Positions 9,347-28,900 of a DNA stretch of 64,000 bases are shown piece after piece (within the stretch, counting starts at the first letter, position 1; every line of letters starts with the position of its first letter). This stretch comes from Fibrobacterota bacterium. Its GTDB lineage: Bacteria; Fibrobacterota; Fibrobacteria; UBA11236. A program made the translations under genes and the position numbers. The notes under the pieces are model-generated. The model was not told the origin of the DNA and did no database searches. It saw nothing but the letters and a program-made list of their open reading frames with translations. The stretch lies in contig JAYUVP010000249.1 of assembly GCA_043753995.1 (NCBI GenBank), forward strand, positions 39,684 through 103,683. The letters are read 5' to 3'.

Positions 9347-10777
9347 ATGGGGAAAGAAACCATCGCGGCCCCGGCCACTCCTCCGGGAATGTCGGGGCTG
9401 GCCATAGTCCGGCTTTCCGGACCGGATTGCCCCGCTGTTCTATTACACTGCCTGGGGCGTACTCTCGGAGTTACCGAAGCTCCGGAGTTACCCAAGGCCT
9501 CGCAGAAGCCGGTGCGCCCTCGGCATATGCATTATGGCGAGTTTCGCCATCCCGAAACCGGCGAAACGCTGGACCGGCTCACCTTCGTCTATTATCCCGC
9601 GCCTAAAAGCCCGACCGGCGAGGATGTGCTTGAGCTCTTCCCCCACGGCAATCGCCTGCTGGTCGAAAATATTCTGCATGCCTTATTGACCTTACCGGGC
9701 TTACGCTTGGCCGGCCCCGGCGAATTCACGCGCCGCGCCTGCGAGAATGGCAAGCTCGATTTGGTGCAAGCCGAAGGCCTCATGGCCTTGGTTCATGCCC
9801 AGTCGCAGGCCGCCTTGCGACATGCCGGACGCGTGCTGGACGGCGCCCTCTCGAAGCGCTTCTTGGCTTTACGGGGCAAACTGATTGACTTGCTGGTTCA
9901 CCTCGAACTCGATGTCGACTTCGCGGAAGAAGAGGCCGATCCCGACTATGCCTCTTGGCGTCCCCGCGTGCAAGACGCGCTCGCCGACATCGAAGCCTTG
10001 CTCCGCAGCCATGATCGCGGCGCCCGCCTGGAGCGCATCCCCCGCGTGGTCTTGCTGGGCGCGCCTAATGCGGGCAAAAGCAGTTTGATCAATGCCTTGC
10101 TGCGCGAGGAAAGGCTTTTGGTTTCCGACATTCCCGGTACGACGCGTGACTTCGTCGAAGTGCCTTTGCATTTGCCTTCGGGGCTAGTGCATTTGGTCGA
10201 CACCGCGGGGCTGGGCGAAGCTGTCGATAGCCTGGACGCTCGCGCCCAGGGAAAAACACGCGAGCAAGCCGACAAGGCCGATTTGCGACTCTGGGTTGCC
10301 AATGGTAACGCACCGGTCGATGCGCTTGCGTGGGCGGGAGATCCGCTCCAGACACTTGCAGGGGACGTCACTCCAACCATACGGGTGCGCACGCGCCGTG
10401 ATCAGCCTGGCTTTTGCTCTGAGGTCGGAGCCCTAGCCGTCGCCAATACCACCGGCGACGGTTTGCCTGAATTGATGGAAGCCCTGGAGACGATTTTGTT
10501 TGCGCCCGCCAAGGTTGTCAGATTAAAAGCTCCCGATGGGCAAGCAGGGGAAGGGGCCGACGAGGTTTTCCTCACCACGGAGCGTCAGCGAGAGGCCTTG
10601 GAAAAGGCCGCCGCGAATTTGCGCGCGGCATTGAATCAGCTCGATGGCCAACCCGCCATTGAAATTCTCGCCTTCGAAGCGCGCGAGGCCGTGCAGGCAC
10701 TGCGCGAATTGCTGGGCGAGGTGAGCGCTGACGATGTGCTCAATCGCTTGTTCTCAGGGTTTTGCATCGGGAAATAG
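9347..10777 (+). CDS. mnmE: tRNA modification GTPase MnmE (TrmE)
   Basis: 476 aa. G-domain motifs (GAPNAGKSSL, DTAGL). Ends with the MnmE-specific C-terminal FCIGK. Confidence 0.9.
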   Translation: MGKETIAAPATPPGMSGLAIVRLSGPDCPAVLLHCLGRTLGVTEAPELPKASQKPVRPRHMHYGEFRHPETGETLDRLTFVYYPAPKSPTGEDVLELFPHGNRLLVENILHALLTLPGLRLAGPGEFTRRACENGKLDLVQAEGLMALVHAQSQAALRHAGRVLDGALSKRFLALRGKLIDLLVHLELDVDFAEEEADPDYASWRPRVQDALADIEALLRSHDRGARLERIPRVVLLGAPNAGKSSLINALLREERLLVSDIPGTTRDFVEVPLHLPSGLVHLVDTAGLGEAVDSLDARAQGKTREQADKADLRLWVANGNAPVDALAWAGDPLQTLAGDVTPTIRVRTRRDQPGFCSEVGALAVANTTGDGLPELMEALETILFAPAKVVRLKAPDGQAGEGADEVFLTTERQREALEKAAANLRAALNQLDGQPAIEILAFEAREAVQALRELLGEVSADDVLNRLFSGFCIGK

Positions 10778-10837
10778 TCCGATCGCAGTAGACCCAAACA
10801 TATGGGCGAGGGAAAATTCCGCGCTGGGTTCCGGGCC

Positions 10838-11758
10838 CTAATGGGTTGAAGCTGGCGTCGAAGTGCGTCCCGCTTGGGCTCGCTTCAATTGTCGCAGCAT
10901 ATAGTGCAAGGATTCCGAGGAATAGCCGTGCAGCAGCAATCGGAAACCTGCGCGTAAAGTGGAAAGCGGCAACATGGGGTGGCGATTGTTCACTCGCCAC
11001 AAACGCGAATCGTCGTCTAGCAAAGTCGAGACATATATTCCAATTGTTTCGTCGAGTTGCAGGGAATTCGAAGCCCGCCAAAAGTCATTGTCGGAAAGTA
11101 GGAACTGGAAAATCGGAGTATAAATCTCGATGGCGGTTTCGACGTCCATGAAATTATGCCAGGAGTCGGGCAATTCTTCGAATTCGAAAGGCCCGTCGGT
11201 AATGGCTTGCAAGTTTATCGTCGTGACGGCATGCAAAACCTTGCCTTCTTTCTGCAAGGTTTGATTCAGGCGAATGATGAAATTGAAGAGATTGATATCA
11301 TGAAACAGGAAAAGGTGGTCTTTCACATCGGCCAGTCGCTTGGGCTTGAGTGGGTTGAGTGGAATATCGACCCCGCTATTGTCTCGAATGAATTCGAGAA
11401 TTTCGGAACCAATGTGGAAATGCCTCATGATCAGCAAATTCGCTTCGCGGCTGGCAAAATACCGGAGTCCCAAATAAATGAGGTGATGCAAAAGCCGTGA
11501 CGACTTGAAAGCAGAAGGAAAGGGTGTTTTCAGCACCATAATTAGGCAAATCAAGGTGCGCATGATGGGCCGGAGCAGGGGCAAAAGGAATTGCCGAGTC
11601 TTGGATTGCAGCCCAAACAGCAAGGCGCCCTTCACTTCGGGATCTATGGGCGTAGAATTGTCGAGAAACAAAGCTTGGGTAGGCAGCGGATCTTCCGGAT
11701 CATGCTTCAGCCCGTTGAAATAACTTTGATACCGGGTATGGCGCGTATTTTCAGTCAT
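10838..11758 (-). CDS. Hypothetical protein, last gene of the lipid-tailoring operon
   Basis: 306-aa ORF whose start overlaps the stop of the upstream KASIII-fusion gene at 11758. No recognisable motifs. Noticeably more AT-rich codon usage than its neighbours. Confidence 0.4.
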   Translation of the reverse strand: MTENTRHTRYQSYFNGLKHDPEDPLPTQALFLDNSTPIDPEVKGALLFGLQSKTRQFLLPLLRPIMRTLICLIMVLKTPFPSAFKSSRLLHHLIYLGLRYFASREANLLIMRHFHIGSEILEFIRDNSGVDIPLNPLKPKRLADVKDHLFLFHDINLFNFIIRLNQTLQKEGKVLHAVTTINLQAITDGPFEFEELPDSWHNFMDVETAIEIYTPIFQFLLSDNDFWRASNSLQLDETIGIYVSTLLDDDSRLWRVNNRHPMLPLSTLRAGFRLLLHGYSSESLHYMLRQLKRAQAGRTSTPASTH

Positions 11759-13635
11759 TAGTAATTGCCTATTTCTTCGAGTTGCAACCGGTAGAGGCGT
11801 GCCGTGGTTTTGGCTGCTTTTACGATTTCATCGGCAAGCATTGGGGTCAAGGGTAAAAGTTTCATCGCCGTATGCATTTCTTCGAGGTGATGCTCGTCAT
11901 TGTGACCGTGATAGAGAAGAAAGGACACCGCATCGGAACTCAGTTGAAGGGCCCTTTGGATTTTCTCGCCCCAAGCCTTGGCCAGGTTTTTTCCAAGTCC
12001 TTCGATGATAAAAACCGAGCCTAGCATGTGAAAAGGATTTTCCCTTCCGGCCTGGTGAAACATATAAGCGGAAAAGGCCTCGGATCCAATATTCTTGGGA
12101 TGGGAAAGTATGTCCCCGCGTTCGCCCCCGGAGGCGACATAGTTGGCTTCGAGCATGCGGAAATCGCGGTGCTCATCCCAGGAATGCTTGAGATAGAGAG
12201 AGCGCAATTCAAAATGCTCCGTGGTGATATTCGAGGCCGCTTTGGAAATCCAGCGACTGCCCTCCATGACTTGCTGGCGCAGGTTGAGAAGCAATTCCCT
12301 GTAGTCGGATCGGGTTAAGTTTCCGGTCTCGATTTTGTGGATGAGGGATAACTTGCTTAGTCCCAATTCGAAATCCGACCACACCAGGAAGAGGCGACGG
12401 AAAAGGGAGGCCAGTAAATCCTCGCCCGGCTGAAGCGGGATGTCGCTCGGAGTGGCGGATATTTCTTGTTGCGCCGGTAACAATGATTTTTTTTCCGTTG
12501 GCGATTCGCCGACTACGGTCAATAGCATAAAACTGGTGATAAAGCGACCGCTCTCGGGGACTTGGCAAAGGATTTTCTGCCCGGATTGAAGCCGTCCCGA
12601 TTGCCATAGTTCTTCGAGCATGATCAACAGGGAGGCCGCGCCTGTATTGCCCTTGTGATATAGGTTGGTGAACCACTTATGCGCAGGAATGTCGGCCAGG
12701 CATTTCTGCAATAGGTCGACGATTTGATCCTTGAAGACATGCGAGGAATAGTGACAAAGAAACCAGTCGAAATCGGGTTTGAGCTTGCCCTCTTCGATAA
12801 GCGAGAGATAATGCGACACACCCAAGGGGACGATTTTGTCGAGCATGGCGAGATCTTGTCTTAGGGTAAACAGACCTTGCCGAACGGCGTCACCATAATT
12901 CGCCATTTCTCCCGTGGTAACCCGTATGCTTCCGTCTTCGGATTTTTCACCGCCGGCATACATGCAAACATCCAGGCTATCGGCATGTGATTTCAAGTCT
13001 ATCCACTCGATACGGAGGGATAGGCCACTTTCCTTGGGCCGGTCTTGCAGAAGCGCGGCGCCCGCACCATCCGACAACATCCAGCGTAAAAATTCGGTGT
13101 CGAGCGGTATGCGCTTCTCATTCTGAAAGCTGTCTAGTTCTTCGAGTATCGGGGCCCGGAATTGACGGCTGGGAAATTCGCTGCCGCAAACCATGCCGGT
13201 CTTGTGCTTGCCGCAGGCAATGGCGTGATAGGCCCCTTGAAGCGCGGACATGACGCTCGCGCAAACACCTTGAAAAGAGGCGACATCGCAGCAGGCGATC
13301 TTGGCTTCGCCTTGCACCATGCTCGAAAAGCCGGGTACGAAGAGATCGCCTTGGGTGGTGGCGGTGGCCAAATAGTCAATACCCTTGGCGTCGATGGAGG
13401 AGTCTTTGAGGGCGGCGTGAATGGCGAGGGAAGCCATTTGCGCATTGCGATGTGTGGGTTTGCCATTTTCGTCGAGAGCATAATGGCGGGTTTCGATGCG
13501 ATTGAGTTTGAGCACTCGCTTTTTCGCGATCGATGGCTTTCCTCCCACGAGTCCGAGTCGCTTCTCGGCGGCTTCGGAGTCTAGCGCGGGTCCAGGAAGA
13601 AAGGCTCCGAGCGAAGTGATATAAACGGGTCGCAT
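11758..13635 (-). CDS. FabH-like 3-oxoacyl-ACP synthase III (KASIII) N-terminal domain fused to a C-terminal heme-oxygenase-like (TenA/PqqC/CADD-type, putative di-iron oxidase) domain
   Basis: Residues 1-~370 have the KASIII thiolase fold pattern: MRPVYITSLGAFLP, DYLATATTQGD, KIACCDVASFQGVCASVMSALQGA, CHYSSHVFKD. The C-terminal ~230 aa are helical with E/H/D clusters (WDEHRDF, IIEGLG, LLYHGHNDEHHLEE) reminiscent of heme-oxygenase-like di-iron enzymes. This domain assignment is inference. Confidence 0.6.
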   Translation of the reverse strand: MRPVYITSLGAFLPGPALDSEAAEKRLGLVGGKPSIAKKRVLKLNRIETRHYALDENGKPTHRNAQMASLAIHAALKDSSIDAKGIDYLATATTQGDLFVPGFSSMVQGEAKIACCDVASFQGVCASVMSALQGAYHAIACGKHKTGMVCGSEFPSRQFRAPILEELDSFQNEKRIPLDTEFLRWMLSDGAGAALLQDRPKESGLSLRIEWIDLKSHADSLDVCMYAGGEKSEDGSIRVTTGEMANYGDAVRQGLFTLRQDLAMLDKIVPLGVSHYLSLIEEGKLKPDFDWFLCHYSSHVFKDQIVDLLQKCLADIPAHKWFTNLYHKGNTGAASLLIMLEELWQSGRLQSGQKILCQVPESGRFITSFMLLTVVGESPTEKKSLLPAQQEISATPSDIPLQPGEDLLASLFRRLFLVWSDFELGLSKLSLIHKIETGNLTRSDYRELLLNLRQQVMEGSRWISKAASNITTEHFELRSLYLKHSWDEHRDFRMLEANYVASGGERGDILSHPKNIGSEAFSAYMFHQAGRENPFHMLGSVFIIEGLGKNLAKAWGEKIQRALQLSSDAVSFLLYHGHNDEHHLEEMHTAMKLLPLTPMLADEIVKAAKTTARLYRLQLEEIGNY

Positions 13636-13649
13636 GAATGTCCTGAGGT

Positions 13650-14582
13650 TTAGACGGGCGAAGGGGAATGGGCAGGTGCAGGAGCTTGCAAGGAATCGGA
13701 TCGGCGAAAATCGAAAGTTCGATAGCGGCGAACGAAATGCTGTAAGACGAAAATTTTCAAGAAGTAAAAGGCGAGACTAGGCTCATTCAATTGGGGATGG
13801 ATCCAATGACGTAGGCGATCGTGTTCCTTAGGCCATTGCGACCAATGCATGTTGATATTGCGGTGATGGACAAGATGATAACCGTGATTAAAGGTGATGC
13901 GGTTCAGCCAAACGCCGACGAAATTTCGGCTGGAATCATAGGGGTGATGGGGGGCTGTGTGATGATGTTGAAAATAGCCGGTGCCTACCATGGCCAAAAC
14001 GCCGAAGGCTTGCGGCAAGAGTAGGGCATAGGCGGTGGTCTTCGCGTCGATTCGCCAGAGATAAAGGGTCAAGGTAAGCCAAGCGGCGATTTGCAGCGAC
14101 CAAAAAAGGCCGAGCCGAAATCCCGAGGTGTTCCGAGGTTTCGCCATCAAGGAAAGCCAATAAAGGAAGCTTGCCCGAAAGTAAACCCTGACTCCATGCG
14201 CGAGATAACGAAAGAACTGCAAAAAATTATTGTGATGGGAATAACGGTAGGTGTAAGTGTAATCGTCGCTGCTGTTGGCATAACGGTGGTGATTGGCATT
14301 GTGCGTCGCTTTCCAGGCATAGCAGCCATCAAAGCGGTAGAGGGTGAAGAGGAATTCGATGGCGCGATTGGCCAACCTGGAGCGGAAAAAGGGCCAATGG
14401 CCGTGACAATGCTGAATGCAGCCGACCACATAGGTGATTAAAGCGGTGAGCACCGAAAGCCACAGGCGCGGCCCTATCAGGAAGTGCCAAGTCACGAGTA
14501 GCGGATAAACAGCCAAGACGCCAAGGCAGCGAAGGTCTTGTTTGTTTCTAAGGCCTAGAACGGAAGAAGACGCCTGCGGCAT
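13650..14582 (-). CDS. Membrane fatty-acid desaturase family protein (FA_desaturase-type histidine boxes)
   Basis: Multiple TM segments plus three His boxes: HCHGH, HNANHH, HGYHLVHH. Confidence 0.7.
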   Translation of the reverse strand: MPQASSSVLGLRNKQDLRCLGVLAVYPLLVTWHFLIGPRLWLSVLTALITYVVGCIQHCHGHWPFFRSRLANRAIEFLFTLYRFDGCYAWKATHNANHHRYANSSDDYTYTYRYSHHNNFLQFFRYLAHGVRVYFRASFLYWLSLMAKPRNTSGFRLGLFWSLQIAAWLTLTLYLWRIDAKTTAYALLLPQAFGVLAMVGTGYFQHHHTAPHHPYDSSRNFVGVWLNRITFNHGYHLVHHRNINMHWSQWPKEHDRLRHWIHPQLNEPSLAFYFLKIFVLQHFVRRYRTFDFRRSDSLQAPAPAHSPSPV

Positions 14583-14585
14583 GAC

Positions 14586-15350
14586 TTATTCCGCCGGGCT
14601 ATGCGCGCGACGACGGTAGCCCGAGGCCAGCCAGCGGTCAAGCCAGGGCGTCCAGAAGCCGAAATTGCGTGTCGCCTTGCGGTGGTGGGTGCCATGGCGC
14701 CAATTGTTTTCCAGAAAACTCGCGCCTTGAGTGTGGGTTGGCCAGGAGAAATTGGCATGCCCGAAAGTATTGGCAGTCATGCTGATAGCCGGCCAAAGCA
14801 TGATGGCGAGGATGTCGAAGTCATGCACAAGCATGATGAGAATCATGGTTCCGCTATAGAGTAAGGCCTCGAACCAGTGAAAGCTAAGGCTACTGAAAGG
14901 CGTAGTGGTCACGCTGTAATGATGCACGGAATGCACACGACGAAAAAGGAAAGGTCTATGCAATAACCAATGGCAGGAAAAGAAATAAAGCTCATTCCAA
15001 GCGGCGAAGAGAAGCAAGTCGCCGAGTGCGCGTACTAGGGAAAAGTCTTTCCATAAAATGGTGAGCATTCCATGCTCTTCCAATTTGAGCGCTAAAACCG
15101 CGAAGAAACTGAGAAAAAGCATGGCACTCATGGACTTCCGAATTTCATGGCCTATTTGACCCGCCTTGATTGGGCGGTTGTCGATATAAAATCCCAGTTT
15201 CCGTTTGATCAGAACGTCACGAATGAAAAGGAAAGATATGGCGGACAAGGAAAAATAAGCCACCAAAAAACCCGCAATATGCCAGGCATAGTATTCGGGC
15301 CAACTCAGACTATGCGACAGCGTTTGCAGGGCGCCGAAGTCGAGCATCAC
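14586..15350 (-). CDS. Fatty acid hydroxylase / sterol desaturase superfamily protein (paralogue 2)
   Basis: His boxes HWLLH, HSVHH, HGTHH embedded in TM helices. Paralogous to 15347..16117. Stop/start overlap with its neighbours. Confidence 0.7.
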   Translation of the reverse strand: MMLDFGALQTLSHSLSWPEYYAWHIAGFLVAYFSLSAISFLFIRDVLIKRKLGFYIDNRPIKAGQIGHEIRKSMSAMLFLSFFAVLALKLEEHGMLTILWKDFSLVRALGDLLLFAAWNELYFFSCHWLLHRPFLFRRVHSVHHYSVTTTPFSSLSFHWFEALLYSGTMILIMLVHDFDILAIMLWPAISMTANTFGHANFSWPTHTQGASFLENNWRHGTHHRKATRNFGFWTPWLDRWLASGYRRRAHSPAE

Positions 15351-16117
15351 GATTTCTCCAAGGGCTCGTCATAATTGAAGCGGGCCGAACGCGTCCGGAA
15401 AGTTTCGTCGAACCAGGGAAAGGCAAAACCGTAATTGCCCTTGATATGGGTGTGATGCAAGGTGTGTCGACGGCAAGAAGAGAAAAGATGATTCAAGGCG
15501 AGCTTGGGAAAAACGGCATAATTCATATGGCCGATATTGTTCATGAAAAGACTCAAAGCCGGGAAGAGAATGATGGCTCCCATGCTCAGAGGCGCGAAGG
15601 CCATATAGGTCACCATGACGCTGCTCAGCAAGACGGCTTCGAACCAGTGAAAGCTATAGGTCGAAAAGGGAGTGGGCACAACCGAAAGATGGTGATGCCG
15701 ATGCACATGTCGGTAAAACCAGGGTAGGTGCAAGAGATAATGCGAGGCATAGAAATGAACTTCATTCCATAAGGTGAGCAGAATGAGATCGAGGACTAGA
15801 CGCCAGGGTGAATGAATCCAATCGATGTGAATCAGGCCCAGCCGCTGCAAGCCCAAGGTCAATCCACCATAAGCGCCGAAGACGAGAATGGAGATTAAGG
15901 AAAGTCTCACTTCACGCGTGATTTGCCGGGGTGGAATGGGGCGTGAATCGATGACGCGGCCAATTTTGAAAGTCGGAAGGACTTTTTGGGTGAGCTGAAG
16001 CGTGATAAAAGCCAGGGCGAAGTAAATGAAAGCAAAACCGAGTGCAACTAAGGCGGCAATTTGCCAGAGCCTAAGTTCGAACATGAAATCGCGTAGTCCG
16101 ATTTGCAAGGCCGTCAT
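15347..16117 (-). CDS. Fatty acid hydroxylase / sterol desaturase superfamily protein (paralogue 1)
   Basis: His boxes HYLLH, HVHRHHH, HTLHHTH. Shared motif FSTYSFHWFEAVLLS vs FSSLSFHWFEALLYS in paralogue 2. Confidence 0.7.
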   Translation of the reverse strand: MTALQIGLRDFMFELRLWQIAALVALGFAFIYFALAFITLQLTQKVLPTFKIGRVIDSRPIPPRQITREVRLSLISILVFGAYGGLTLGLQRLGLIHIDWIHSPWRLVLDLILLTLWNEVHFYASHYLLHLPWFYRHVHRHHHLSVVPTPFSTYSFHWFEAVLLSSVMVTYMAFAPLSMGAIILFPALSLFMNNIGHMNYAVFPKLALNHLFSSCRRHTLHHTHIKGNYGFAFPWFDETFRTRSARFNYDEPLEKS

Positions 16118-16356
16118 GCTGCGCTTTCTAGGCGAAGTATCACATCGCCAATGGTGGCGGCGGCCATCAATTCTTCCAAAGGGATTTCAGCCAGGCCGCT
16201 TTGATGCAGTTCATACTCCAATTCGAGAGCGCTTAAAGAGTCGAGCCCTAAATCCTTTTTCAAGGACATATCATGGCTCAGGGATTCGACTGGGCGATGG
16301 GAGACTCGGCTGATGGCTTGCATCACCTTGATTTCAATAGCAGGCATACGGGTCAA
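16114..16356 (-). CDS. Acyl carrier protein
   Basis: 80 aa with the phosphopantetheine attachment motif DLGLDSL. Start overlaps the KAS stop and its stop overlaps the hydroxylase start (ATGA). Confidence 0.75.
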   Translation of the reverse strand: MTRMPAIEIKVMQAISRVSHRPVESLSHDMSLKKDLGLDSLSALELEYELHQSGLAEIPLEELMAAATIGDVILRLESAA

Positions 16357-17567
16357 TCTTGATGACGCGAAAAAAGGAGGGAAACATTATTCGAGCCGAA
16401 ACCGAAAGAATTCTTGAGGATGTTTCGCAATGGCGCATGTTGATTCGCCGATTCAGTCGCTGTCATACCTTCCTGAAGGTGAAAGGCTTGCGGCAATTGC
16501 TGCTTCATCAAGGCTTGGACGCATAGAATGGATTCGAGGATACCACAAGCCCCAAGACTATGTCCGATTTGGTTTTTTGGAGCCACCACGAGCTTGCCGC
16601 CGAGTTCCTTGCCAAATACCGAATGCATGCCGAGATATTCGACTTCATCATTCTTCAGGGTACCGGTGCCATGCGCGCAAATGGCATCGATATCTTTGGC
16701 CTCTATTCCGGCGCAAGCTAAGGCTTTGTGCATGACGGCAATAATATCGCTCGCATCGGGCTTCGGTGCGACTGGATGATATGCACCTGAATTCTGTGCC
16801 ACGCCGGAAAGCTTTGCCAAGATCGGTGCGCCACGCCTGCGCGCCGACTCTGGTGATTCAAGTATAAGGAAGCCAGCTCCCTCGGCGAGTATAAAGCCGT
16901 CGCGCTCCGGGTGAAAGGAGCGTCCCGGCTGCAGGGGATCGCGTTGGGCGCTGAGCACTTTCAATTGCTTATAAGCATGATAATTGAAGGGTGAAAGCGG
17001 GGCTTCTGCGCCGCCCACCAAAGCGATGTCCCATTGCCCAGTAGCGATTTTCCAAAAGCCTTCAGCAAGGGCATTTGCGCTTGAGGAGCAGGCCGTAGAG
17101 ATGCAGAGGTTCGGACCGGTAATGCCGGTTTGTTGGGCTATCCATGACCCCAGGGCACTGGGCATCACCTTGGGGACGGTGAAGGGATGTATCGCGCGCA
17201 TGCCTTCTTGCAAGGCTTTGGCGATCATTTCTTCATGAAAGTCCAGACCACCGAGACCACTGCCCAGGCAAATGCCGATGCGATAGTCGGAAGTGTCGCC
17301 GGACAAGCCCGCTTGATCCAAAGCCTCGCGGGCAGCGATGATACCTAAGTGTACGCAGCGAGCAGAGCGAGCGAGAATTTCGGGTGGTAGTCGCTTGGCG
17401 ACATCGATATGGACCTTGCCAACCAAAACCGGATCGATAGCAAAACCGTCCTGAAATGAGAATTGGGCTTTGCCGGAAGACATTTCATCCCAAAAAGCAT
17501 CTACTCCGCAGGCGCGGCCGACGAGCGCACCCAAGCCGGTGATGACAGGAAAGGTTACCATCAACAA
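16353..17567 (-). CDS. Beta-ketoacyl-ACP synthase (FabF/FabB-like KAS I/II)
   Basis: 404 aa. Active-site Cys motif ISTACSSSANALAEG. His motifs (AHGTGT, IGHSLGA) in the expected order. Confidence 0.85.
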   Translation of the reverse strand: MLMVTFPVITGLGALVGRACGVDAFWDEMSSGKAQFSFQDGFAIDPVLVGKVHIDVAKRLPPEILARSARCVHLGIIAAREALDQAGLSGDTSDYRIGICLGSGLGGLDFHEEMIAKALQEGMRAIHPFTVPKVMPSALGSWIAQQTGITGPNLCISTACSSSANALAEGFWKIATGQWDIALVGGAEAPLSPFNYHAYKQLKVLSAQRDPLQPGRSFHPERDGFILAEGAGFLILESPESARRRGAPILAKLSGVAQNSGAYHPVAPKPDASDIIAVMHKALACAGIEAKDIDAICAHGTGTLKNDEVEYLGMHSVFGKELGGKLVVAPKNQIGHSLGACGILESILCVQALMKQQLPQAFHLQEGMTATESANQHAPLRNILKNSFGFGSNNVSLLFSRHQD

Positions 17568-17576
17568 CCCCTCAAA

Positions 17577-18158
17577 TCATTGCTCTTGCTCGGGCATATC
17601 GAATAAAAAACCGATCTGAAAAAACATCTCTAAGTTGGCTGACGCCCCACGCCTAACAAACGAGTTATTGTTCGATCCCATGGGAATAAAAATCTCGATA
17701 GCATTTCCGGCGGCCATCTTAAAGTGACCCGCCTGAAAATGGAATTTGCCCCCTGGTGCAATGAGGGCGTCCTCGGATTTGAAGGAACCATAGTAGTCGC
17801 GCTCACGATAATACCGATATCCGAATTCGATTTCAGGAGTAAAGCCCCAGCGGTAGCCCTGCCAAACGCTATAGCCAAAATAGATGGACGGGCTAAGGTA
17901 TTTGCTTGTCTTCGACTGGGTCTGAATTTGAATCAAATTGATAATTCCCGGCTTTAAACCGAATTCAAAGCGATCCACATGTCTTTCCAAAAAAAGTTCG
18001 ATGGGAAAAATGCCAACCGTGCCTCCGCTATAGCTACGGTCAACCTGGGATTCTCCAGCGGAGGACAAAATGAAACCGACTTGATTATCATAGGCGCTTG
18101 CTCCAGAGTGAAACAAGGGCAAGGTGCTGAGCAGGAATAAAAACCGCGGTAGGAACAT
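17577..18158 (-). CDS. Hypothetical secreted protein (Tyr/Gly-rich, possibly beta-rich), first gene of the lipid operon
   Basis: The ORF extends to 18251, but MFLPRFLFLLSTLPLFHSGASA at 18158 is a plausible signal peptide and avoids overlap with the divergent ferredoxin. No family assignment. Confidence 0.4.
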   Translation of the reverse strand: MFLPRFLFLLSTLPLFHSGASAYDNQVGFILSSAGESQVDRSYSGGTVGIFPIELFLERHVDRFEFGLKPGIINLIQIQTQSKTSKYLSPSIYFGYSVWQGYRWGFTPEIEFGYRYYRERDYYGSFKSEDALIAPGGKFHFQAGHFKMAAGNAIEIFIPMGSNNNSFVRRGASANLEMFFQIGFLFDMPEQEQ

Positions 18159-18183
18159 GGGGTGCAAAGTAATATTCCCAATC

Positions 18184-18483
18184 ATGAGCCAGCCTTCGTC
18201 ATCCCATGATTCTTGTCGCCAAAAGCCGGGTCTTTTCAAACCCATTGTCAATCATTCGCGCTGTGAAGGCAAAAGCGATTGCGTGGTGGTCTGTCCGGTG
18301 AATGTTTTCGAAGTGCGCCGCATCGAAGATTCTGATTTCGCGGCACTAGGCATACTGGCCAAGGTCAAAGTCATGGTCCATGGCAGAAAAACGGCCTATA
18401 CGCCCCGCGCCGAGGCTTGCGAAGCCTGCGGCCTATGCGTCACGGCTTGTCCGGAAAAGGCGATTCGCCTGATGAAGGTTTAA
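18184..18483 (+). CDS. 2x[4Fe-4S] ferredoxin
   Basis: Two Cys clusters: CEGKSDCVVVCP and CEACGLCVTACP. Divergently transcribed from the lipid operon. A start at MSQPSS (18184) is preferred over the listed 18124. Confidence 0.65.
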   Translation: MSQPSSSHDSCRQKPGLFKPIVNHSRCEGKSDCVVVCPVNVFEVRRIEDSDFAALGILAKVKVMVHGRKTAYTPRAEACEACGLCVTACPEKAIRLMKV

Positions 18484-18489
18484 GCGGTT

Positions 18490-21400
18490 TTAATTCGGCG
18501 GGGTTCCCCATTTGAACCAGGCATTCAAGGTGGCCAGTTCGGTGGGAGTGAGTTGCACACCCGAAGCGGGCATATATCCTGCGGATAGGAATGGACGATT
18601 GATGCGATCGTAAACCTTGCTTCGCGTCAAGGAGTCGGCGACAGTCGTGGAATCGCAAACCGCGGTGGCGTTCACCTTCCCGGGCCCGTGGCATGTCAGG
18701 CAGTAGGTGTTTAGAACGGTGGAAACGCCGGAGTTAAAAGGCGGCAAAACCGTATTGCGAGCCAAGGCATGAATAGGCCCGTCCGTGGCGGTGGCCGTGA
18801 TGGTTGTCGTGCCGGTGATCATTTTCAAGACTTGAACTTGGGTGGAGCTCACCACTTTCAAAACCGCAGGATTGCTGCTGGTCAAGGCATAGGTCTTGAG
18901 CGTGGTGGAATCTGGCGCGAAAACCGCTGTGCTTTGCACCGTCGTTCCCACCACGAGCCGTGGCAGGGTTAGGGCGATTCCCGTAGCCACCACATTCCCC
19001 ACGGTTACATTGAAATTCGCTGTTTTCGCCCCGTCGGTCGAAGTCACGCGCCATACCGAATTCCCCGCCGCTGTTCCCGATAATTGAGTTGTTCCTACCA
19101 GAGTGGCACCTGTACCTGACACCAAGGAAAGGGTATAGCCCTTATTTGTCGCCGATGACGGCGTCCAGGATAAAGTTGGCGCCTTGGTACTGCCAACAAA
19201 AAGGCTGAGGTTAGCCGCGCTCACGCTCTGCACCGGGACCGGGCCCACGACCACGGTGAAGGTGTCCTTGACCGTGGGATTTTGCACCGAAGTCGCGACA
19301 ATCTTCACCGAGCCCAATGCGGATGCCGTCACCTTGCCTCCGGGCAAAACCGTGACGCCCAAGCCCAAGGAGGTGAGGGTATAGCTCTTACTCGTCGCCT
19401 CCTCAGGAAAGGCGCCTACCTGTGGAATCACGGTGTCGCCGACTTGAAAGGAAGTGTCTGCTCCGACCAAGCTGTCGACGGGCCACGGAATCACGGTCAC
19501 TTTAAAGGACTTGGATTTCGCTCCTTCTTCGGTGGTCAATCCGACATTGGCCGATCCCACGTAGGCGCCATGAATTCGAATACCCGTGGGCGTGGTCACT
19601 GTGGTATCGAAGGAAACCAAGCTATAGCCCTTATTGCTCGCATCCCCCGGCGCAAAAGTCACCTTGGGGAATTTCGTGTCGCCAAGCCTCACCGTGTCTT
19701 CCGCCACCGTCACGTTTTGCAAGGGGACGAAATGGGCATTGAGCCAGCCCAGTAAAATGCCCAGCTGGCTGGGAGTCAAGTCGCCTTCAGCCGGCATGCG
19801 ATCCTTGTCGGTTTTCGCGAGTTGCAAGCGCCGTAGCGATTCCGCGCCCTTGATCAAGAAAACGCTGGAGTCTTGCAAGTTGAAAGTAATGGTGGGGCTA
19901 TGGCATTTGCCGCATTTCTCGGTGGTGATGGGCTTAACATGCGCGTCGAATTGCGGCGTCACGGCCATAGCGGTGAAGGTGGCCGTCTTGTCTCCATCTT
20001 CGGCGCGCACCGTGATTTTTGCCGAGCCCAATACCCCGGCCACCAGGCGATTGCCGACCGGTTTGATGGCGGCGCTATTGTCGCTTTCCAAGGTGTAATT
20101 CTTATTGGTGGCGTCATTCGGTAAGAAGACCACTCTGGGCGTGATGGTGTCGCCGAGGGCGATGGCGGTGTCCTTGGCAGAGAGGCTAAGCACCGTTTTC
20201 ACATTGCGGCCCAACCAGAGCAGCATCAAATCGAGATCGCGCTTGTCCATGGTGGTGTCGGCAGGCATATGCGCCGTGTTTCCGAAAGGCAAGGACAATC
20301 GCGCGAGGGCCTTGCTTCCACGGCCGACGAGTACAGCCGAGTCCTGCAGATTGAAGGTAATGGTGGGGCTATGGCATTTGCCACACCACTTCTTGGAAAT
20401 GGGTTGTATATCGGCAAAGGTTGGGCCTCGTACGGTCACCGTAAAGGTGTCCTTTGCTCCGCCGGCAGTTGCGGTAACCGTCACCTGCGCCGAGCCTTCG
20501 GCGCGCAAGGCGAGGCGCTTGCCGACGACACGGACTCGGGTGGTATCATCGCTTGCTATTTCAAATTCGCGCTCGGTGGCATTGGAAGGCATGAAGACGA
20601 TGTTCGGTGTAAGGGTGTCATAAAGCAAACCCGTGGTGTCCACCGCGTCCAGCGCAGTCGGGGCGATGCTCTTGTCGCTAATCGAGAATGAGAAGGTGGC
20701 CTTGGCGCTGCCACGGTTGGCCTGCACCGTCACCTGGGTGCTACCTGCGGCGAGAGCGACGAGGCGAAGCCCGCTCAGCACCTTGGCCTTGGTGGTGTCC
20801 GCTACGATCAATTGCACGCCCTTGTCGGTGGCGCCGTCAGGCTCCAAGGTCGGCGTGACTGTCACGGTATCACCGGTTTTGGCGCCGAGATTCGATACCG
20901 AGATGGAGCTAAGCAAGATCACCTTTTCGGTGATGGTCACTGAGAAAGACATACGGGCCGTGTCGCGATGGGCTCGCACTTCGATAGTGACCTTGCCCGT
21001 ATCACGGCATAGCACGGCATGGCCGCGCGTTCCCGCGCGCAAGGTGTCGACGGCATGCAGGCTGTATTCCTTGTCGGCGGCGGTGTCGGGACGCACGGTC
21101 ACCCGGGCATTCACCGTGTCTCCCGCCTGGCAGTCCAGATCTTCGGCTGTCAGTCGCGTGCGCGCCCTGTCTACCTGCGCCAAGCTGTCTTGATGCGCGA
21201 CACTATCGGCGAGGATGACGCTGTCCTTGCGGGCCTTGACGTCCACCACGGCGCTGTCGCGCTTCTGTCCTTTTTCGGCATAGTCGAAGCGCTTTTCAAA
21301 GGCCACGGCATTGTCTTTCAGCCCCGTGATGACGGCCGAAAAATTGGGCGACACGTTTTCGGGCAAATCGAATTGCACCGTGCTCTGGCCCGGCTTCAAA

Positions 21401-21597
21401 ACAAAGGTTTTGCTGAACAGGGTTTTGCCCGTGTCGAGTCCCTTAGGATAAAGCGAAACCTTCACGCTGTCGAATTTCCCCACCAGAGTGGAATCGAGCT
21501 GGAATTGCAATTCGGTTTTTTCCTTGGGATTGCTCAGGCAGGAAAATAGCCCGAGCAAGACAAAGCCGAGAAGCGAAAGGGAAAGCAGGGTTTTCAT
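18490..21597 (-). CDS. Giant surface lipoprotein with multiple Big_2-type Ig-like domains and three embedded CxxCH (PSCyt1-like cytochrome c) modules
   Basis: True start MKTLLSLSLLGFVLLGLFSC (lipobox) at 21597 overlaps the stop of the upstream gene (TAATG). Repeated Big_2-like segments (for example TLESDNSAAIKPVGNRLVAGVLGSAKITV). WCGKCHSPTITFNLQDS occurs twice, plus CLTCHGPG near the C-terminus, each followed ~40 aa later by MP...W, matching the PSCyt1 pattern. Confidence 0.6.
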   Translation of the reverse strand: MKTLLSLSLLGFVLLGLFSCLSNPKEKTELQFQLDSTLVGKFDSVKVSLYPKGLDTGKTLFSKTFVLKPGQSTVQFDLPENVSPNFSAVITGLKDNAVAFEKRFDYAEKGQKRDSAVVDVKARKDSVILADSVAHQDSLAQVDRARTRLTAEDLDCQAGDTVNARVTVRPDTAADKEYSLHAVDTLRAGTRGHAVLCRDTGKVTIEVRAHRDTARMSFSVTITEKVILLSSISVSNLGAKTGDTVTVTPTLEPDGATDKGVQLIVADTTKAKVLSGLRLVALAAGSTQVTVQANRGSAKATFSFSISDKSIAPTALDAVDTTGLLYDTLTPNIVFMPSNATEREFEIASDDTTRVRVVGKRLALRAEGSAQVTVTATAGGAKDTFTVTVRGPTFADIQPISKKWCGKCHSPTITFNLQDSAVLVGRGSKALARLSLPFGNTAHMPADTTMDKRDLDLMLLWLGRNVKTVLSLSAKDTAIALGDTITPRVVFLPNDATNKNYTLESDNSAAIKPVGNRLVAGVLGSAKITVRAEDGDKTATFTAMAVTPQFDAHVKPITTEKCGKCHSPTITFNLQDSSVFLIKGAESLRRLQLAKTDKDRMPAEGDLTPSQLGILLGWLNAHFVPLQNVTVAEDTVRLGDTKFPKVTFAPGDASNKGYSLVSFDTTVTTPTGIRIHGAYVGSANVGLTTEEGAKSKSFKVTVIPWPVDSLVGADTSFQVGDTVIPQVGAFPEEATSKSYTLTSLGLGVTVLPGGKVTASALGSVKIVATSVQNPTVKDTFTVVVGPVPVQSVSAANLSLFVGSTKAPTLSWTPSSATNKGYTLSLVSGTGATLVGTTQLSGTAAGNSVWRVTSTDGAKTANFNVTVGNVVATGIALTLPRLVVGTTVQSTAVFAPDSTTLKTYALTSSNPAVLKVVSSTQVQVLKMITGTTTITATATDGPIHALARNTVLPPFNSGVSTVLNTYCLTCHGPGKVNATAVCDSTTVADSLTRSKVYDRINRPFLSAGYMPASGVQLTPTELATLNAWFKWGTPPN

Positions 21598-22418
21598 TAT
21601 TTCACCTTGGTCACGACGGTCGTCGTTTGCGTGCCGGGATCGCTCATGAGCATAATGGTGGTGATGCCGACTAGAGTCACCGCAGCTGCACCTCCCGCCA
21701 CCCACAGCCAGGTTTTATTGCCTTTGCCGTCGCCGGAGGTCGCAGCGGCGTTACCCCCCGCCTGAGATGCCGGATCCGAGGTCTTGGCACCTGCCGACCC
21801 AATAACCGCATTAGCTCCCGTGTCAGGCCTCACCTCGATGAGATTACGCCCGGTCGAGTCAATGGGATAGCCGAAAGTCTTCAAGTTCTTGCGTACGCGC
21901 TCGCGCTCGGCCACGCTATCGCTGTCGCTGGCGGTGCGATCATAACGCTTGCGCACCTCACGAAACATGTCCAGAATGGCATCACCCACTTCGAGGTCTT
22001 CCAAATCTTGGCGCGGATCGAGCTTAAGCATTTGATACAGAAAAGATTCTGCCTTGCGACGCGTTCCCATGTCGGCGCCATACACCACACCGAGGTATTT
22101 ATAGATGAAAATGCTGTCTTCCTTGTCGCGAATGCGGCGATCGCGGCGCATGTTTTCCAAAAGGGCGATGAGTTGATCGAAGTCGCCGCCATGATAAAGC
22201 TCTTCCACCGTTTTTTTATCGAGCACGGCTGATTTTTTCAACTTGGTCGCCGAGGTTTTCGCGGGCGACGCAGCGGGGGTGGCCTTGGTCGTGTTCGTTG
22301 AGTTCGCGGTCGTAGTTGCGGGCGTGGCTTTTTCGGGTTGCGGCGTTGCCGACCATGAAGTCATGACCCCAAAAACCGTAAGCGCGAGAAACCCGGCCAA
22401 GGTGCTGAAAAACCTCAT
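21597..22418 (-). CDS. Hypothetical secreted, C-terminally membrane-anchored protein with TPR-like core (module A small subunit)
   Basis: Signal peptide MRFFSTLAGFLALTVFGVMTSWSA, then a Thr/Ala/Pro-rich linker, a conserved core (DSIFIYKYLGVVYGADMGTRRKAESFLYQMLKLDPRQDLEDL) and a C-terminal TM helix (WLWVAGGAAAVTLVGITTIML). Paralogue of 25268..25936. Confidence 0.5.
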   Translation of the reverse strand: MRFFSTLAGFLALTVFGVMTSWSATPQPEKATPATTTANSTNTTKATPAASPAKTSATKLKKSAVLDKKTVEELYHGGDFDQLIALLENMRRDRRIRDKEDSIFIYKYLGVVYGADMGTRRKAESFLYQMLKLDPRQDLEDLEVGDAILDMFREVRKRYDRTASDSDSVAERERVRKNLKTFGYPIDSTGRNLIEVRPDTGANAVIGSAGAKTSDPASQAGGNAAATSGDGKGNKTWLWVAGGAAAVTLVGITTIMLMSDPGTQTTTVVTKVK

Positions 22419-25267: not shown

Positions 25268-25936
25268 ATGTCTAGTCCTATTTCCCCCGTTTCTGTCCTG
25301 CTCTTTGCCCTTGGCTTGCCCGTATTCGGTGCAGCTCCCCAGCCATCCTCGGCGACGACTTCGGCACCGATGGCGAAAACCACCTCGTCCCCGAGTGTCT
25401 TAGATACCGCGGTGATTCATGGCGCCTATGCCGACGGCGATTTCGAAAAGGTGACGAGTTCGCTAGAGCCCATACTCGCCGCGAAAACCGTTTTGCCCAA
25501 GGCCGACAGCATTTTTCTTTTTCGCCACCTGGGCGTGATTTATGCCAAAGACCCAGGCACGCGCGAAAAGGGGAAATACTGCTTTCGCAAATTGCTCGAT
25601 GTCGATCCGCAAGCGCAAATTCTCGATCTCTATGCCACCGATGAGATCTATCAGGTCTTTCGCACCGTCCAGGCCGAATGGGACTTGTCTCATCCCAATG
25701 CCCAAAATCAAGCCGCCTCCTCCTCCAATCGCGTCTCCGCCGCTCCTGCTCCAGTCATGGAGCCCGCCGCTCCCCCTGCGGCCAAGCCCGCGAAGACGCA
25801 ATCCTGGAAACGCTATGCCGCCGTGGGCGGAGCCGTTGCTGTCACCGCCGGGTTAACCACCTGGTATTTGCTTTCTTCCCAAAAAGCCGACAACAAAACC
25901 GTGACTGTGGAAGTCGATCCCGCCCAGCCGAAATGA
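25268..25936 (+). CDS. Hypothetical secreted, C-terminally membrane-anchored protein with TPR-like core (module B small subunit)
   Basis: Signal peptide MSSPISPVSVLLFALGLPVFGAAP. Core DSIFLFRHLGVIYAKDPGTREKGKYCFRKLLDVDPQAQILDL is homologous to 21597..22418. C-terminal TM helix (YAAVGGAVAVTAGLTTWYLL). Confidence 0.5.
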   Translation: MSSPISPVSVLLFALGLPVFGAAPQPSSATTSAPMAKTTSSPSVLDTAVIHGAYADGDFEKVTSSLEPILAAKTVLPKADSIFLFRHLGVIYAKDPGTREKGKYCFRKLLDVDPQAQILDLYATDEIYQVFRTVQAEWDLSHPNAQNQAASSSNRVSAAPAPVMEPAAPPAAKPAKTQSWKRYAAVGGAVAVTAGLTTWYLLSSQKADNKTVTVEVDPAQPK

Positions 25937-28900
25937 ATAACATGAAAAAACTCTGTTTGCCCCAGTTTTTACGCCGCGCTGGCCTGCTCACGGGCATGGC
26001 TTTCGGTTTTGCCTTGCTGGCTTCTTTCGCCTTATTGCCCACCGCCTGCACCAGCACCGAGGGTGGCACTGATTTCGAAATTGCCTATGTCGATCGAGAT
26101 AATCTCACGTCTTTCGACTCCATTGTCGTGCTTCTCAATAAGGAGGGCTCCGAAAAGCCGGACACCCTTTTCAAGGGCAAGCTCACCGACAGCACGGTCT
26201 TGCGTCACTTGAAAGTTCCTGGTAACTTGCAAGGTACGGTGACTATTTCCGTGCAGGGCTTCAATCATGGCGAACTCGCCTTGGAACGCCATACCACGGT
26301 CGACGCGGACAAGCAAACCGTCGCCGGCACCGATTTGAAGCACAGCTCCCAAGGTCGCATTCGCTTCGCCGAACCTTCCCTGAAAATGAAAATCGGCGAT
26401 ACCGCTGCCATTCCAGCATTGGATATCGAGCCCTCCGAATGGAAAGACAAGGAAGTCACCTTCAGCTTTCAGGAAATCAAGGTGCTCGCTCTCATCGCCA
26501 AGAACAAGCTCGTGGGTTTAGCCCGCGGATCGGCGCGCGTGGTGGCCACCCTCGTCGGCGATAGCACCGTCACCGACACCCTTTTCGTGCAAGTCGTTGA
26601 TCCCGAGGCCGATAAAATCACCGTCCGCGTCTCGCCTGACACCTTGCGTCTCACCGCATTGGGCGCCTCGCTTTCCCTCAATGCCGAAACAACGCCTCTC
26701 TACTCGCCTCTCACCTGGAGTAGCGCCGATGATACTGTGGCCACCGTCGATGCCAATGGCTTGGTGCGTGGTTTGAAGGTCGGCAAGACTTGGGTTCGTG
26801 CCCGTTCTACTACCGACAGCTCCGGCGCGGACTCGTCTTGGGTCGTCGTATCGGGAGCCGTGCCAGTGGAAAGTGTCCGTTTCGCCCGCTCCACCCTCAG
26901 CTTATTCGAGGGCGGCGCGGCCGACAGCGTCAGCGTTCAAGTGCTCCCGACCGACGCCAATCCCGCGACTGGCCTGCGTCTCATCGGCAAGGCCGTGACG
27001 CTCAATGGCCGCCGCTTCATTCCCGTCGATACGGGATCCGCCATCGCCATCGCTTATTCCCTGGTGGACACGACCAAGACCGACACCTTGCGCATCAGCG
27101 TGAAGCAAGCCTTGACCATTCAATCCTTCCGGATTAAGCCGGACACCTTGCGTCTCTATCTCGGCGGGCCGGATAGCGCTTTCTCCATAGTTGTCGATCC
27201 TGCCTCGGCGGGCCTGGACGCGGTATGGCATTTGGCCAAGCTTGGCATTGCCAGAGTTTCCGATTCTGGCTTGGTGAAAGCCATTGGCGAAGGCCAGGTT
27301 TTAGTCTTGGCCCAAGCCCTCGCCGACAGTAGCAAGCGCGATACCTCCCTGATTCAAGTCGTGCGCGATATGCCCAAGCTCTCCGTGGGCAATGCCGTGG
27401 TGGCCAGCCCGGAATCCACGATCGATTTCGTGCCCAAGGTCGAGCAAGAATTCGGCGGGGTGACTCGGTTCTGGTGGGATCTCGATGGCAATGGCACTTG
27501 GGACGACAGCAGCGATGGCCTTAAAAACCTGAGCCGCAAATATGACGCCGTTGGCGAAACCACGACGCATTTCAAGGTGCGCGATGCCGAAGGCAATGAG
27601 GGAATGGCCGATCGCAAGGTGACCATTACCAAGGGGCCCCATGTAGTCATCCTGGTTCCTCCGGACGGCTTTGTCACCAATAAGAAAACCGTCGAGGTGA
27701 ATTGGGAAGTCGACCATGTCAAGCAAGACAAGCAAACTCAAGAGCAATTGACCCAAGAGGGCCCCAAGACTTTGGTGCGCTCCGCCAAGGATGCCAATGG
27801 CAATGAAACCGTCATTTCCATCACGGTATTTCTTGATACCAAGGCGCCCGAGCGACCCCTGGTGAGTTCGGTGTCGCCCACCAATAGCAAAACGCCGAAC
27901 TTCAGCTGGCGCAGCGGCGGCGGAAAAGGTGCCGGACTCTATCGGTATCAAATCGACGCTGAACCCGGCGCGAACCAAAGCGAAACCGGCGACACCACCT
28001 TGACCTGGCCCGCCGATTTGAATGCGGGCAGCCACACCTTGTTTGTACAGGAGCGCGACACAGCGGGCAATTGGTCGGCTAGCGGCAGCGCCAAGGTCAT
28101 CATCGACTTGACCGCCCCGCCAGCGCCGACGGTAAGTGCCGTCAGCGGCCCGAATAGCACGAATCTCCAGGTGACCTTTGTCTGGAAAGGCGCCGAGGAA
28201 GGTGCCCTGCGCTATCGCTATCAAATCGATAAGGAAAAATTCGAAGGCGGTGCCGTCGAGGTAGGGGACACCACGGTGACGGTGATCTTGACCGAGGGGC
28301 ATCATGCCTTTTATTTGCAGCAGCTCGACAGCGCCGGCAATGCTTCGACGCCGGGCAAGGCTTCGGTGAATGTGGATGTGACGGCCCCCAATAAGCCTTC
28401 CCTGCGTTCGCTCACGGGCGTCTGGTCCACGAATGGCAAACCCACTTGGATTTGGAAAACGGGTGGCGGCGCCGGCAATGGCAAATTCCGCACTCGCCTC
28501 GACACCGCCGACTTGAGCGCTAAGAGCTTTTTCACGGATACGTCCTTCACCCCCGCAGCTGCCATCGGCGAAGGCCCGCATCGACTCTTCGTGCAAGAAA
28601 TGGACAGCGTGGGCAATGTCTCACCTGCCGAATCTCTCACCATCACCGTGGACACCCAGGGGCCTTCAGCTCCGATTTGCCTTGAGCCCGCCGACAATGC
28701 CTGGGTCAATACGCAAAAGCCGACCTGGAAATGGAAAGGCGGCGGGGGCGGTGACGGACGTTATTATGCCTTCATCGCGGCAGCTTATACTCCTGACACC
28801 TCGACCCGGGTCACTGACACCACCCTTACTCCGCCGGCCAATCTCCCCGAAGGCCAAAAAATTCTCGGAGTGAAGGCCTATGATGCCGCAGGCAATGTCT

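Follow-up and report, generated by a model that had tools for sequence, protein, structure and literature searches.

A ketosynthase fused to a putative heme-oxygenase-like di-metal oxidase in a Fibrobacterota bacterium, one member of a widespread and uncharacterised variant of the StlD/DarB system

The DNA analysed here, referred to as the window, is a stretch of 64,000 nucleotides (nt) from a Fibrobacterota bacterium (GenBank assembly GCA_043753995.1, contig JAYUVP010000249.1, positions 39,684 to 103,683 of the forward strand). Its minus strand carries a tightly packed eight-gene operon (gaps of -4, -4, -4, 3, 14, -1 and 9 nt) which encodes, in order, a 224-aa unknown protein, a FabF-like ketosynthase, an acyl carrier protein (ACP), two FA_hydroxylase-family proteins, an FA_desaturase-family protein, a fusion protein and a DUF6999 protein. 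The fusion gene is a 625-codon open reading frame at 11758..13635 (minus strand) that starts with ATG and ends with a TAA stop codon at 11758-11760. A sequence-only reading of this DNA had described its product as a FabH-like KASIII condensing enzyme joined to a heme-oxygenase-like putative di-iron oxidase. The analysis reported here indicates that the window encodes a modified DarB/StlD system, with two unrelated proteins, the heme-oxygenase-like di-metal oxidase (HDO) and DUF6999, apparently in place of DarA. The gene is not unique to this genome; it represents a widespread but uncharacterised form of a known pathway.

Both halves of the fusion were recognised by Pfam in the same polypeptide. 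ACP_syn_III_C matched residues 286-357 (E 5.9e-10), with ACP_syn_III also found in the N-terminal half, and Haem_oxygenas_2 (PF14518, 'iron-containing redox enzyme') matched residues 522-615 with 33.0 bits for the full protein against a gathering score of 28.9; the HDO domain by itself scored 35.3 bits on PF14518. The StlD/DarB-like ketosynthase domain, with a thiolase fold, occupies residues 1-375 (12511..13635, minus strand) and contains C125, H295, N330 and the conserved E153. It is followed by an interdomain linker at residues about 376-404 (12424..12510, minus strand), which is poorly conserved and variable in length; column conservation is 0.3-0.5 in the linker versus 0.7-0.9 in the flanking domains, and its length ranges from 30 to 66 residues in 118 homologues. 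The putative HDO domain covers residues 405-625 (11761..12423, minus strand) and is assigned from PF14518, AlphaFold2 modelling, Foldseek and ligand conservation.

The N-terminal domain is identified as a StlD/DarB-type ketosynthase, and not a generic FabH, from its sequence relationships. StlD is the Photorhabdus ketosynthase that makes the cyclohexanedione (CHD) precursor of isopropylstilbene. Residues 3-375 aligned end to end with the solved StlD structure (5gk0; E 2e-81, about 40% identity), whereas true FabH structures matched the domain at E 1e-10 or worse. The best NCBIfam models were the StlD/DarB family beta-ketosynthase (NF005293, 387.9 bits) and resorcinol_DarB (NF053539, 348.4 bits), and the cut-off of neither FabH model was reached (TIGR00747, 59.4 bits for a cut-off of 292; NF006829, 76.8 bits for a cut-off of 249). 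C125, H295 and N330 align with the active-site Cys, His and Asn of StlD, and E153 aligns with a family-wide Glu. The Cys/His/Asn triad is kept in 118/118 fused homologues, and the position of E153 is Glu in 112 of them and Asp in the other 6. The KASIII/thiolase fold that had been proposed for this half stands on the ACP_syn_III match and the StlD alignment; its designation as a FabH-type priming enzyme gives way to that of a predicted StlD/DarB-type ketosynthase, which condenses head to head and cyclises.

To model the C-terminal half, residues 395-625 were aligned with 55 stand-alone homologues and then submitted to AlphaFold2. The model consists entirely of helices, with a mean predicted local distance difference test (pLDDT) score of 93.5 and a predicted template-modelling (pTM) score of 0.88; pLDDT is low in the first ~10 residues. 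In Foldseek comparisons to the PDB, the best matches were 3DDE (template-modelling (TM) score 0.81-0.82) and CADD (TM 0.78-0.80), and further matches included TenA proteins, heme oxygenases and UndA (TM 0.68-0.70). A profile of the subfamily searched against PDB sequences had 3DDE as its sole match (E 1.7e-10), with H-x3-E-x2-(H/D), the Glu of IIEGLG and H-x3-D-x2-H in register. PF14518 was matched by 56/56 members of the HDO subfamily, and an NCBIfam search with the HDO domain matched no model. The C-terminal half is a putative heme-oxygenase-like di-metal oxidase, and the heme-oxygenase-like assignment made earlier from motif spacing is borne out by the PF14518 score, the modelled fold and the structural matches. 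The two best of these, 3DDE (Sden_3740, function uncharacterised) and CADD (the self-sacrificing p-aminobenzoate synthase of Chlamydia), share 14-19% identity with the domain and are stand-alone proteins without a ketosynthase or DUF6999 context, whose substrates are unrelated or uncharacterised.

At the sequence level, seven candidate metal ligands (H484, E488, D491, E545, H576, D580 and H583) show no variation across 56 stand-alone and 118 fused homologues. The three motifs quoted in the sequence-only reading were all found, namely WDEHRDF at residues 486-492, IIEGLG at 543-548 and LLYHGHNDEHHLEE at 573-586. With regard to the acidic and histidine clusters noted there, the ligand positions are invariant, but H489 and the extra His of the LLYHGHNDEHHLEE motif are not conserved. 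A non-metal helical domain, or the absence of ligands, was looked for and was not obtained; the set of three His and four carboxylates is kept by most divergent relatives. Among divergent cluster representatives (n=36, 24-52% identity), the full ligand set was present in 22, down to 31% identity. The two most distant representatives (24-26% identity) have His at the D491 position and keep the other ligands; their first core helix reads H-x3-E-x2-H, as in 3DDE, in contrast to the H-x3-E-x2-D of the fusion. The remaining divergent representatives carry one or more substitutions at ligand positions.

This pattern bears on whether the HDO is inert here, serving as a structural, dimerisation or carrier-protein-docking domain, or acting in a self-sacrificing, single-turnover manner like CADD. 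CADD is a close structural match and is described as a self-sacrificing enzyme (PMC11965152), and ligand residues are lost in some divergent representatives, as described above. However, the seven candidate ligands are invariant across fusions and stand-alone proteins from several phyla, and stand-alone HDO genes are kept at the same operon position. Because the HDO is maintained as a separate gene in that position, survival of a mere docking domain would be unlikely, and an inert HDO is considered very improbable.

The helix that precedes the core was compared with those of characterised HDOs. UndA is an HDO that holds the fatty-acid carboxylate on Fe1 and carries out an O2-dependent oxidative decarboxylation, creating a C=C bond (PMC7848743). 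In the study of SznF, the HDO N-oxygenases are recognised by an additional carboxylate ligand, placed on a beta-turn insertion of auxiliary helix 2, and the HDOs without that carboxylate are the C-H- or C-C-cleaving UndA and BesC, in which the substrate carboxylate binds Fe1 instead (PMC7848743). In the AlphaFold2 model of the fusion's C-terminal half, domain residues 48-74, which precede core helix 1, form an unbroken helix. Its acidic residue, E458, stays E or D among close homologues and is N, Q, R, G, H, L, S or M in divergent ones. The fusion HDO and UndA, the 1-undecene synthase of Pseudomonas, are alike in fold, in H-x3-D-x2-H on the last core helix and in a Glu on the middle core helix, and an unbroken auxiliary helix without a conserved extra carboxylate may be a further likeness; they differ in that there is no significant sequence similarity between them. 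SznF shows that an HDO can work as part of a biosynthetic enzyme with several domains (PMC7848743), but it is an N-oxygenase with the extra auxiliary-helix Glu ligand, is fused to a cupin domain and acts on an amino acid rather than on a polyketide or fatty-acid product.

The gene downstream of the fusion (10838..11758, minus strand) encodes a 306-aa DUF6999 protein (PF22523, E 1.7e-111). Its ATG overlaps the fusion stop codon (TAATG), an arrangement that shows putative translational coupling of the two genes. DUF6999 was present in every ketosynthase-HDO locus examined. Metagenome contigs were scanned with a DUF6999 alignment, and the 80 loci that were kept are the closest relatives of the window DUF6999 (49-58% identity), so that the count is biased toward the fused form. 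An in-frame ketosynthase-HDO fusion was present in 52/52 of the loci with enough upstream DNA; in 13 further loci the HDO was seen and the ketosynthase was lost to the contig end, and the other 15 had <=400 nt of upstream sequence. In about 19 loci the fusion and DUF6999 lie 810-950 nt apart (1223 nt in a single locus), and the interval corresponds to an FA_desaturase-family gene in both cases checked. An FA_hydroxylase homologue was found in 17 loci. Judged by gene content, ketosynthase, HDO and DUF6999 form a conserved three-part module across many phyla, in which ketosynthase and HDO are fused or adjacent.

At least 3000 proteins belong to the DUF6999 family, and every one is annotated as hypothetical. 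Aligning 47 of them revealed many invariant polar residues, among them an H153-D154 pair. The DUF6999 model (pLDDT 89.4, pTM 0.88) is all-helical with one hydrophobic helix at residues 57-76, and comparison of the model to the PDB gave no structural relative.

The occurrence of the ketosynthase-HDO architecture was assessed through several searches. In the best 120 database matches to the full protein, ACP_syn_III_C was present in 120/120 and PF14518 in all but two, and 118 were full-length (600-730 aa). Named sources of fusions included Acidobacteria (Pyrinomonadaceae, Blastocatellia), Candidatus Tectomicrobia and Archangium, and the nearest named relative came from a Candidatus Tectomicrobia metagenome-assembled genome (MAG; 62% identity). 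Stand-alone HDO proteins of ~230 aa from the same subfamily are abundant in Microthrixaceae, Sphingomonas, Micavibrio and Alphaproteobacteria. A word-index search with the HDO domain mostly listed proteins that were stand-alone or truncated and missed the full-length fusions, the query's own protein among them; the balance of fused and split forms was therefore judged from an exhaustive search and from the locus counts. When the HDO domain was searched exhaustively against 1.84 billion cluster representatives, only 342 matched at E <= 1e-3, which include ~630-aa (fused) and ~235-aa forms, and 51 at E <= 1e-30. These counts indicate a compact, discrete HDO subfamily that is well apart from the rest of PF14518. 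One 1825-aa protein in the exhaustive search (P0452) gave 15 separate matches to HDO-domain residues 103-163, which may reflect a protein with repeats or an assembly anomaly.

The fused gene or the adjacent-gene pair was found in Acidobacteriota, Myxococcota, Actinomycetota, Bacillota, Bacteroidota and Pseudomonadota, with a degraded copy in Nostoc. Ketosynthase, HDO and DUF6999 are three adjacent genes on a plasmid of Pseudoalteromonas sp. THAF3, and in Microthrixaceae the same three are followed by an MMPL transporter. In Archangium the order is fusion, FA_desaturase, DUF6999 and FA_hydroxylase, with a MacB-type exporter nearby. The smallest clusters consist of a TetR gene, the fusion and DUF6999 only (Pyrinomonadaceae) or show the fusion and DUF6999 (Cohnella, a Bacteroidota MAG and another metagenome contig). 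In the case of Nostoc flagelliforme CCNUN1, an unannotated ketosynthase-HDO and DUF6999 copy adjoins a cytochrome P450 gene on plasmid pNFSY08 (about 9001-11635); it appears degraded, as the match falls into two segments and covers no more than half of DUF6999. Thousands of copies are already in sequence databases under automatic names. The fusion is common and also occurs split into two adjacent genes, which makes it undescribed rather than rare; the earlier suggestion that such a fusion had not been described agrees with our finding no paper on it.

Synteny served to identify DarA/StlC proteins in Burkholderia, in Streptomyces and in 15 genomes of Photorhabdus. A Burkholderia pseudomallei plasmid carries a canonical DarA-DarB-ACP arrangement, in which the protein upstream of the ketosynthase is 318 aa long and has no Pfam match. 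Species genomes were scanned with the StlD sequence, and 80 loci were returned, 15 of them from Photorhabdus. A homologue of the 318-aa DarA lies directly upstream of the ketosynthase in 77/80 of these canonical loci, including all 15 from Photorhabdus, where the homologue is StlC (315 aa, 52-55% identical to the 318-aa protein) and is followed by StlD and an 88-aa ACP. HDO and DUF6999 were found in none of the 80 canonical StlD/DarB loci. Conversely, tblastn with DarA gave nothing in the window, in any ketosynthase-HDO locus examined or in the 80 metagenome DUF6999 loci. At the level of gene content, these searches show the module and DarA/StlC to be mutually exclusive.

DarA/StlC proteins are about 315 aa long with a flavodoxin-like N-terminus and a hydrophobic C-terminus; StlC has a weak WrbA-type match, and an NCBIfam search with StlC matched no model. 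The possibility that the fusion is DarB joined to DarA was rejected, since the syntenic DarA/StlC is a different, unrelated protein. That DUF6999 is itself DarA was also rejected, as BLASTP of DUF6999 against DarA gave no significant alignment. Compared with the StlD/DarB plus StlC/DarA plus ACP systems (stilbene, dialkylresorcinol, flexirubin and bartoloside), the window is alike in its ketosynthase (about 40% identity to StlD), in the catalytic residues and in having an ACP, and a carboxy-cyclohexanedione (carboxy-CHD) product class would be expected. The window operon also has a FabF-like ketosynthase. The systems differ in that the window has a fused HDO and DUF6999 in place of DarA/StlC.

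DarB and StlD make carboxy-CHDs, and the substrates of the aromatase DarA are carboxy-CHDs, not decarboxylated CHDs, with CO2 lost during aromatisation (PMC6836626). In the proposed mechanism, the ketosynthase would condense a beta-ketoacyl thioester with a 2-enoyl thioester, these substrates being carried here on the cluster's own ACP and drawn in minimal clusters from fatty-acid synthesis. As with StlD and DarB, the product would be a carboxy-CHD, 2,5-dialkyl-cyclohexane-1,3-dione-4-carboxylate. The tethered HDO would capture this labile beta-keto acid with its carboxylate on the di-metal site, like lauric acid in UndA, and an O2-dependent oxidative decarboxylation would give a C4=C5 double bond. 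The resulting cyclohexenedione would be the keto tautomer of a 2,5-dialkylresorcinol and would convert to it, and the HDO would thereby do the job of DarA via unrelated chemistry. DUF6999 would be required, for example, for further modification of the ring or chains, for membrane delivery, or for cofactor and electron supply. In the window, the one desaturase-family and two hydroxylase-family membrane enzymes would then tailor the alkyl chains or the ring.

The view that the ketosynthase makes a carboxy-CHD and that the tethered HDO aromatises it by UndA-like oxidative decarboxylation is tentative, and its chances are put slightly short of even. The exclusivity with DarA, the tethering of the HDO, the lability of the beta-keto acid and the possibly UndA-like auxiliary helix together favour the view that a non-homologous HDO stands in for DarA. 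It is the HDO, and not DUF6999, that is fused to the ketosynthase; this favours the HDO as the first to act on the labile product, and the fusion suggests that an unstable beta-keto acid is channelled between the domains. The reaction type would be like that of UndA, with loss of CO2 and formation of an adjacent C=C bond; UndA acts on a free fatty acid, whereas the presumed substrate of the fusion HDO is a cyclic beta-keto acid and the domain is fused to the enzyme that would make it. The idea put forward in the sequence-only reading, that a condensation is coupled to an oxidative decarboxylation on the same substrate, agrees well with this evidence, from which we infer it.

Several observations weigh against this interpretation. 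Both NCBIfam scores of the ketosynthase are under their curated cut-offs (450 bits for NF005293 and 550 bits for NF053539); by comparison, a DarA-linked B. pseudomallei ketosynthase scores 599.8 and 501.4 bits, respectively. In a simple neighbour-joining tree, midpoint-rooted and without bootstrap, the fusion ketosynthase joins other HDO-linked ketosynthases, apart from the canonical StlD/DarB enzymes sampled, with the exception of one Streptomyces DarA-linked enzyme that is not set apart from the HDO-linked group. Given the sub-cut-off score and the tree placement, the product could differ from a carboxy-CHD. HDO-linked ketosynthases might then make no CHD at all. Their product could be an acyl-alkyl-pyrone, for instance, or a linear beta-keto acid, on which the HDO would carry out an UndA- or BesC-like decarboxylation or C-C cleavage to give an olefin or ketone lipid without relation to resorcinols. 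The score and the clustering in the tree are both consistent with such a product, as are the frequent neighbours of the module, which are fatty-acid desaturase- and hydroxylase-family enzymes and MMPL- or MacB-type lipid exporters, and a review notes that DarB homologues without DarA may differ in product (PMC6836626). All four StlD/DarB active-site residues are nevertheless kept, and the identity of about 40% to StlD extends over the whole domain; a product other than a CHD is judged quite unlikely, with a small but real chance of being correct.

The remaining points against UndA-like aromatisation of a carboxy-CHD concern the HDO and its partner. The likeness to UndA is at the fold level only (TM 0.68), and the chemistry of the nearest structural matches, 3DDE and CADD, is either different or uncharacterised. 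Three representatives of 317-633 aa, which are fused or long enough to be so (P0379, P0387 and P0389), carry correlated E488G, D580E and H583N/Q changes, which may reflect a variant metal site or the loss of one metal. Furthermore, HDO and DUF6999 stand where DarA alone stood, so either could be the aromatase, and the HDO could instead be a hydroxylase. In one form of this alternative, the HDO would be an oxygenase acting on the ring or side chain to give a hydroxy-resorcinol, hydroquinone or quinone lipid, and aromatisation would be due to DUF6999 or would be spontaneous. HDOs include oxygenases besides desaturases and decarboxylases, and the seven candidate ligands (three His, four carboxylates) equal the count reported for HDO N-oxygenases (PMC7848743). 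DUF6999 is also linked to the ketosynthase as strictly as the HDO is, and its many invariant His, Asp and Glu residues are enzyme-like. On the other hand, the fused partner is the HDO rather than DUF6999, the auxiliary-helix carboxylate position is not conserved in divergent homologues and DUF6999 is unlike any known oxidoreductase fold. The oxygenase explanation is considered unlikely, while retaining an appreciable chance.

Dialkylresorcinols, cyclohexanediones and bacterial stilbenes serve as signals, antibiotics and pigment anchors. We know of no report of decarboxylative aromatisation of a cyclic beta-keto acid for the HDO superfamily. In the literature, no paper was found that deals with the ketosynthase-HDO architecture or with DUF6999, or that places an HDO in the biosynthesis of resorcinols or cyclohexanediones, and papers up to mid-2026, including a 2026 preprint, still give dialkylresorcinol-type synthesis as DarB plus DarA. 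A 2019 review described DarB homologues that lack DarA and are unexplained (PMC6836626). If the HDO does replace DarA, it would represent a new reaction type in a fast-growing enzyme superfamily, would explain these DarA-less homologues and would provide a genome-mining rule for resorcinol-type clusters in chemically little-explored phyla. DUF6999, in turn, is a family of several thousand members with a confident model and no known fold relative; its size, its model and its link to a defined pathway make its function directly testable. More broadly, resorcinol-type or related cyclic lipids may have a second, widespread route in this module, with the HDO as a decarboxylative aromatase on a cyclic beta-keto acid and DUF6999 as an enzyme of previously unseen fold. 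The products of this route would form an unrecognised class of envelope lipids or signals in organisms such as soil Acidobacteriota, myxobacteria and Paenibacillaceae. This wider proposal is speculative, and we would sooner expect it to fail in some part than to hold as a whole.

The other operon genes, all on the minus strand, lie upstream of the fusion. A fatty-acid-desaturase-family membrane protein of 310 aa (13650..14582; PF00487, E 3.2e-19), with His boxes and hydrophobic segments, is encoded 14 nt upstream of the fusion, and its gene is inferred to be an accessory tailoring gene. It is preceded by genes for a 254-aa fatty-acid-hydroxylase/sterol-desaturase-family membrane protein with His boxes (14586..15350; PF04116, E 3.8e-18) and a second FA_hydroxylase-family membrane protein of 256 aa (15347..16117; PF04116, E 2.5e-20), the latter gene overlapping both of its neighbours by 4 nt. 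The segment 13650-16117 (minus strand) thereby encodes three successive membrane di-iron-type enzymes with His boxes, two of which are tandem FA_hydroxylase-family paralogues. In Archangium and many metagenome loci, too, the ketosynthase-HDO/DUF6999 unit has homologues of the FA_desaturase and FA_hydroxylase families as neighbours.

Further upstream are the 80-aa ACP (16114..16356; PF00550, E 2e-8), which contains a DSL phosphopantetheine-attachment motif, and the FabF-like beta-ketoacyl-ACP synthase II of 404 aa (16353..17567; PF00109 and PF02801), which scores 305 bits on TIGR03150, below the cut-off. The head of the operon is a gene for a 224-aa protein of unassigned family (17577..18251), which lies 9 nt from the FabF-like gene and is included by spacing only. 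No Pfam family matches this protein, which begins with a hydrophobic segment that is signal-peptide-like by eye and may be a small outer-membrane beta-barrel.

On the other side of the cluster, yidC and mnmE (window 7445-10777, plus strand) directly adjoin it, with rpmH-rnpA-yidD before them on matching assemblies, and the cumulative GC skew reaches its minimum near 8-10 kb of the window. These neighbours and the skew minimum suggest that the cluster may be close to the chromosomal replication origin region. Beyond the operon, 18490-21705 (minus strand) encodes a 1071-aa protein with cytochrome-c and Big_2 domains and 25678-30546 (plus strand) encodes a 1622-aa protein with Big_13 and Big_2 domains; both look to be outside the lipid operon.

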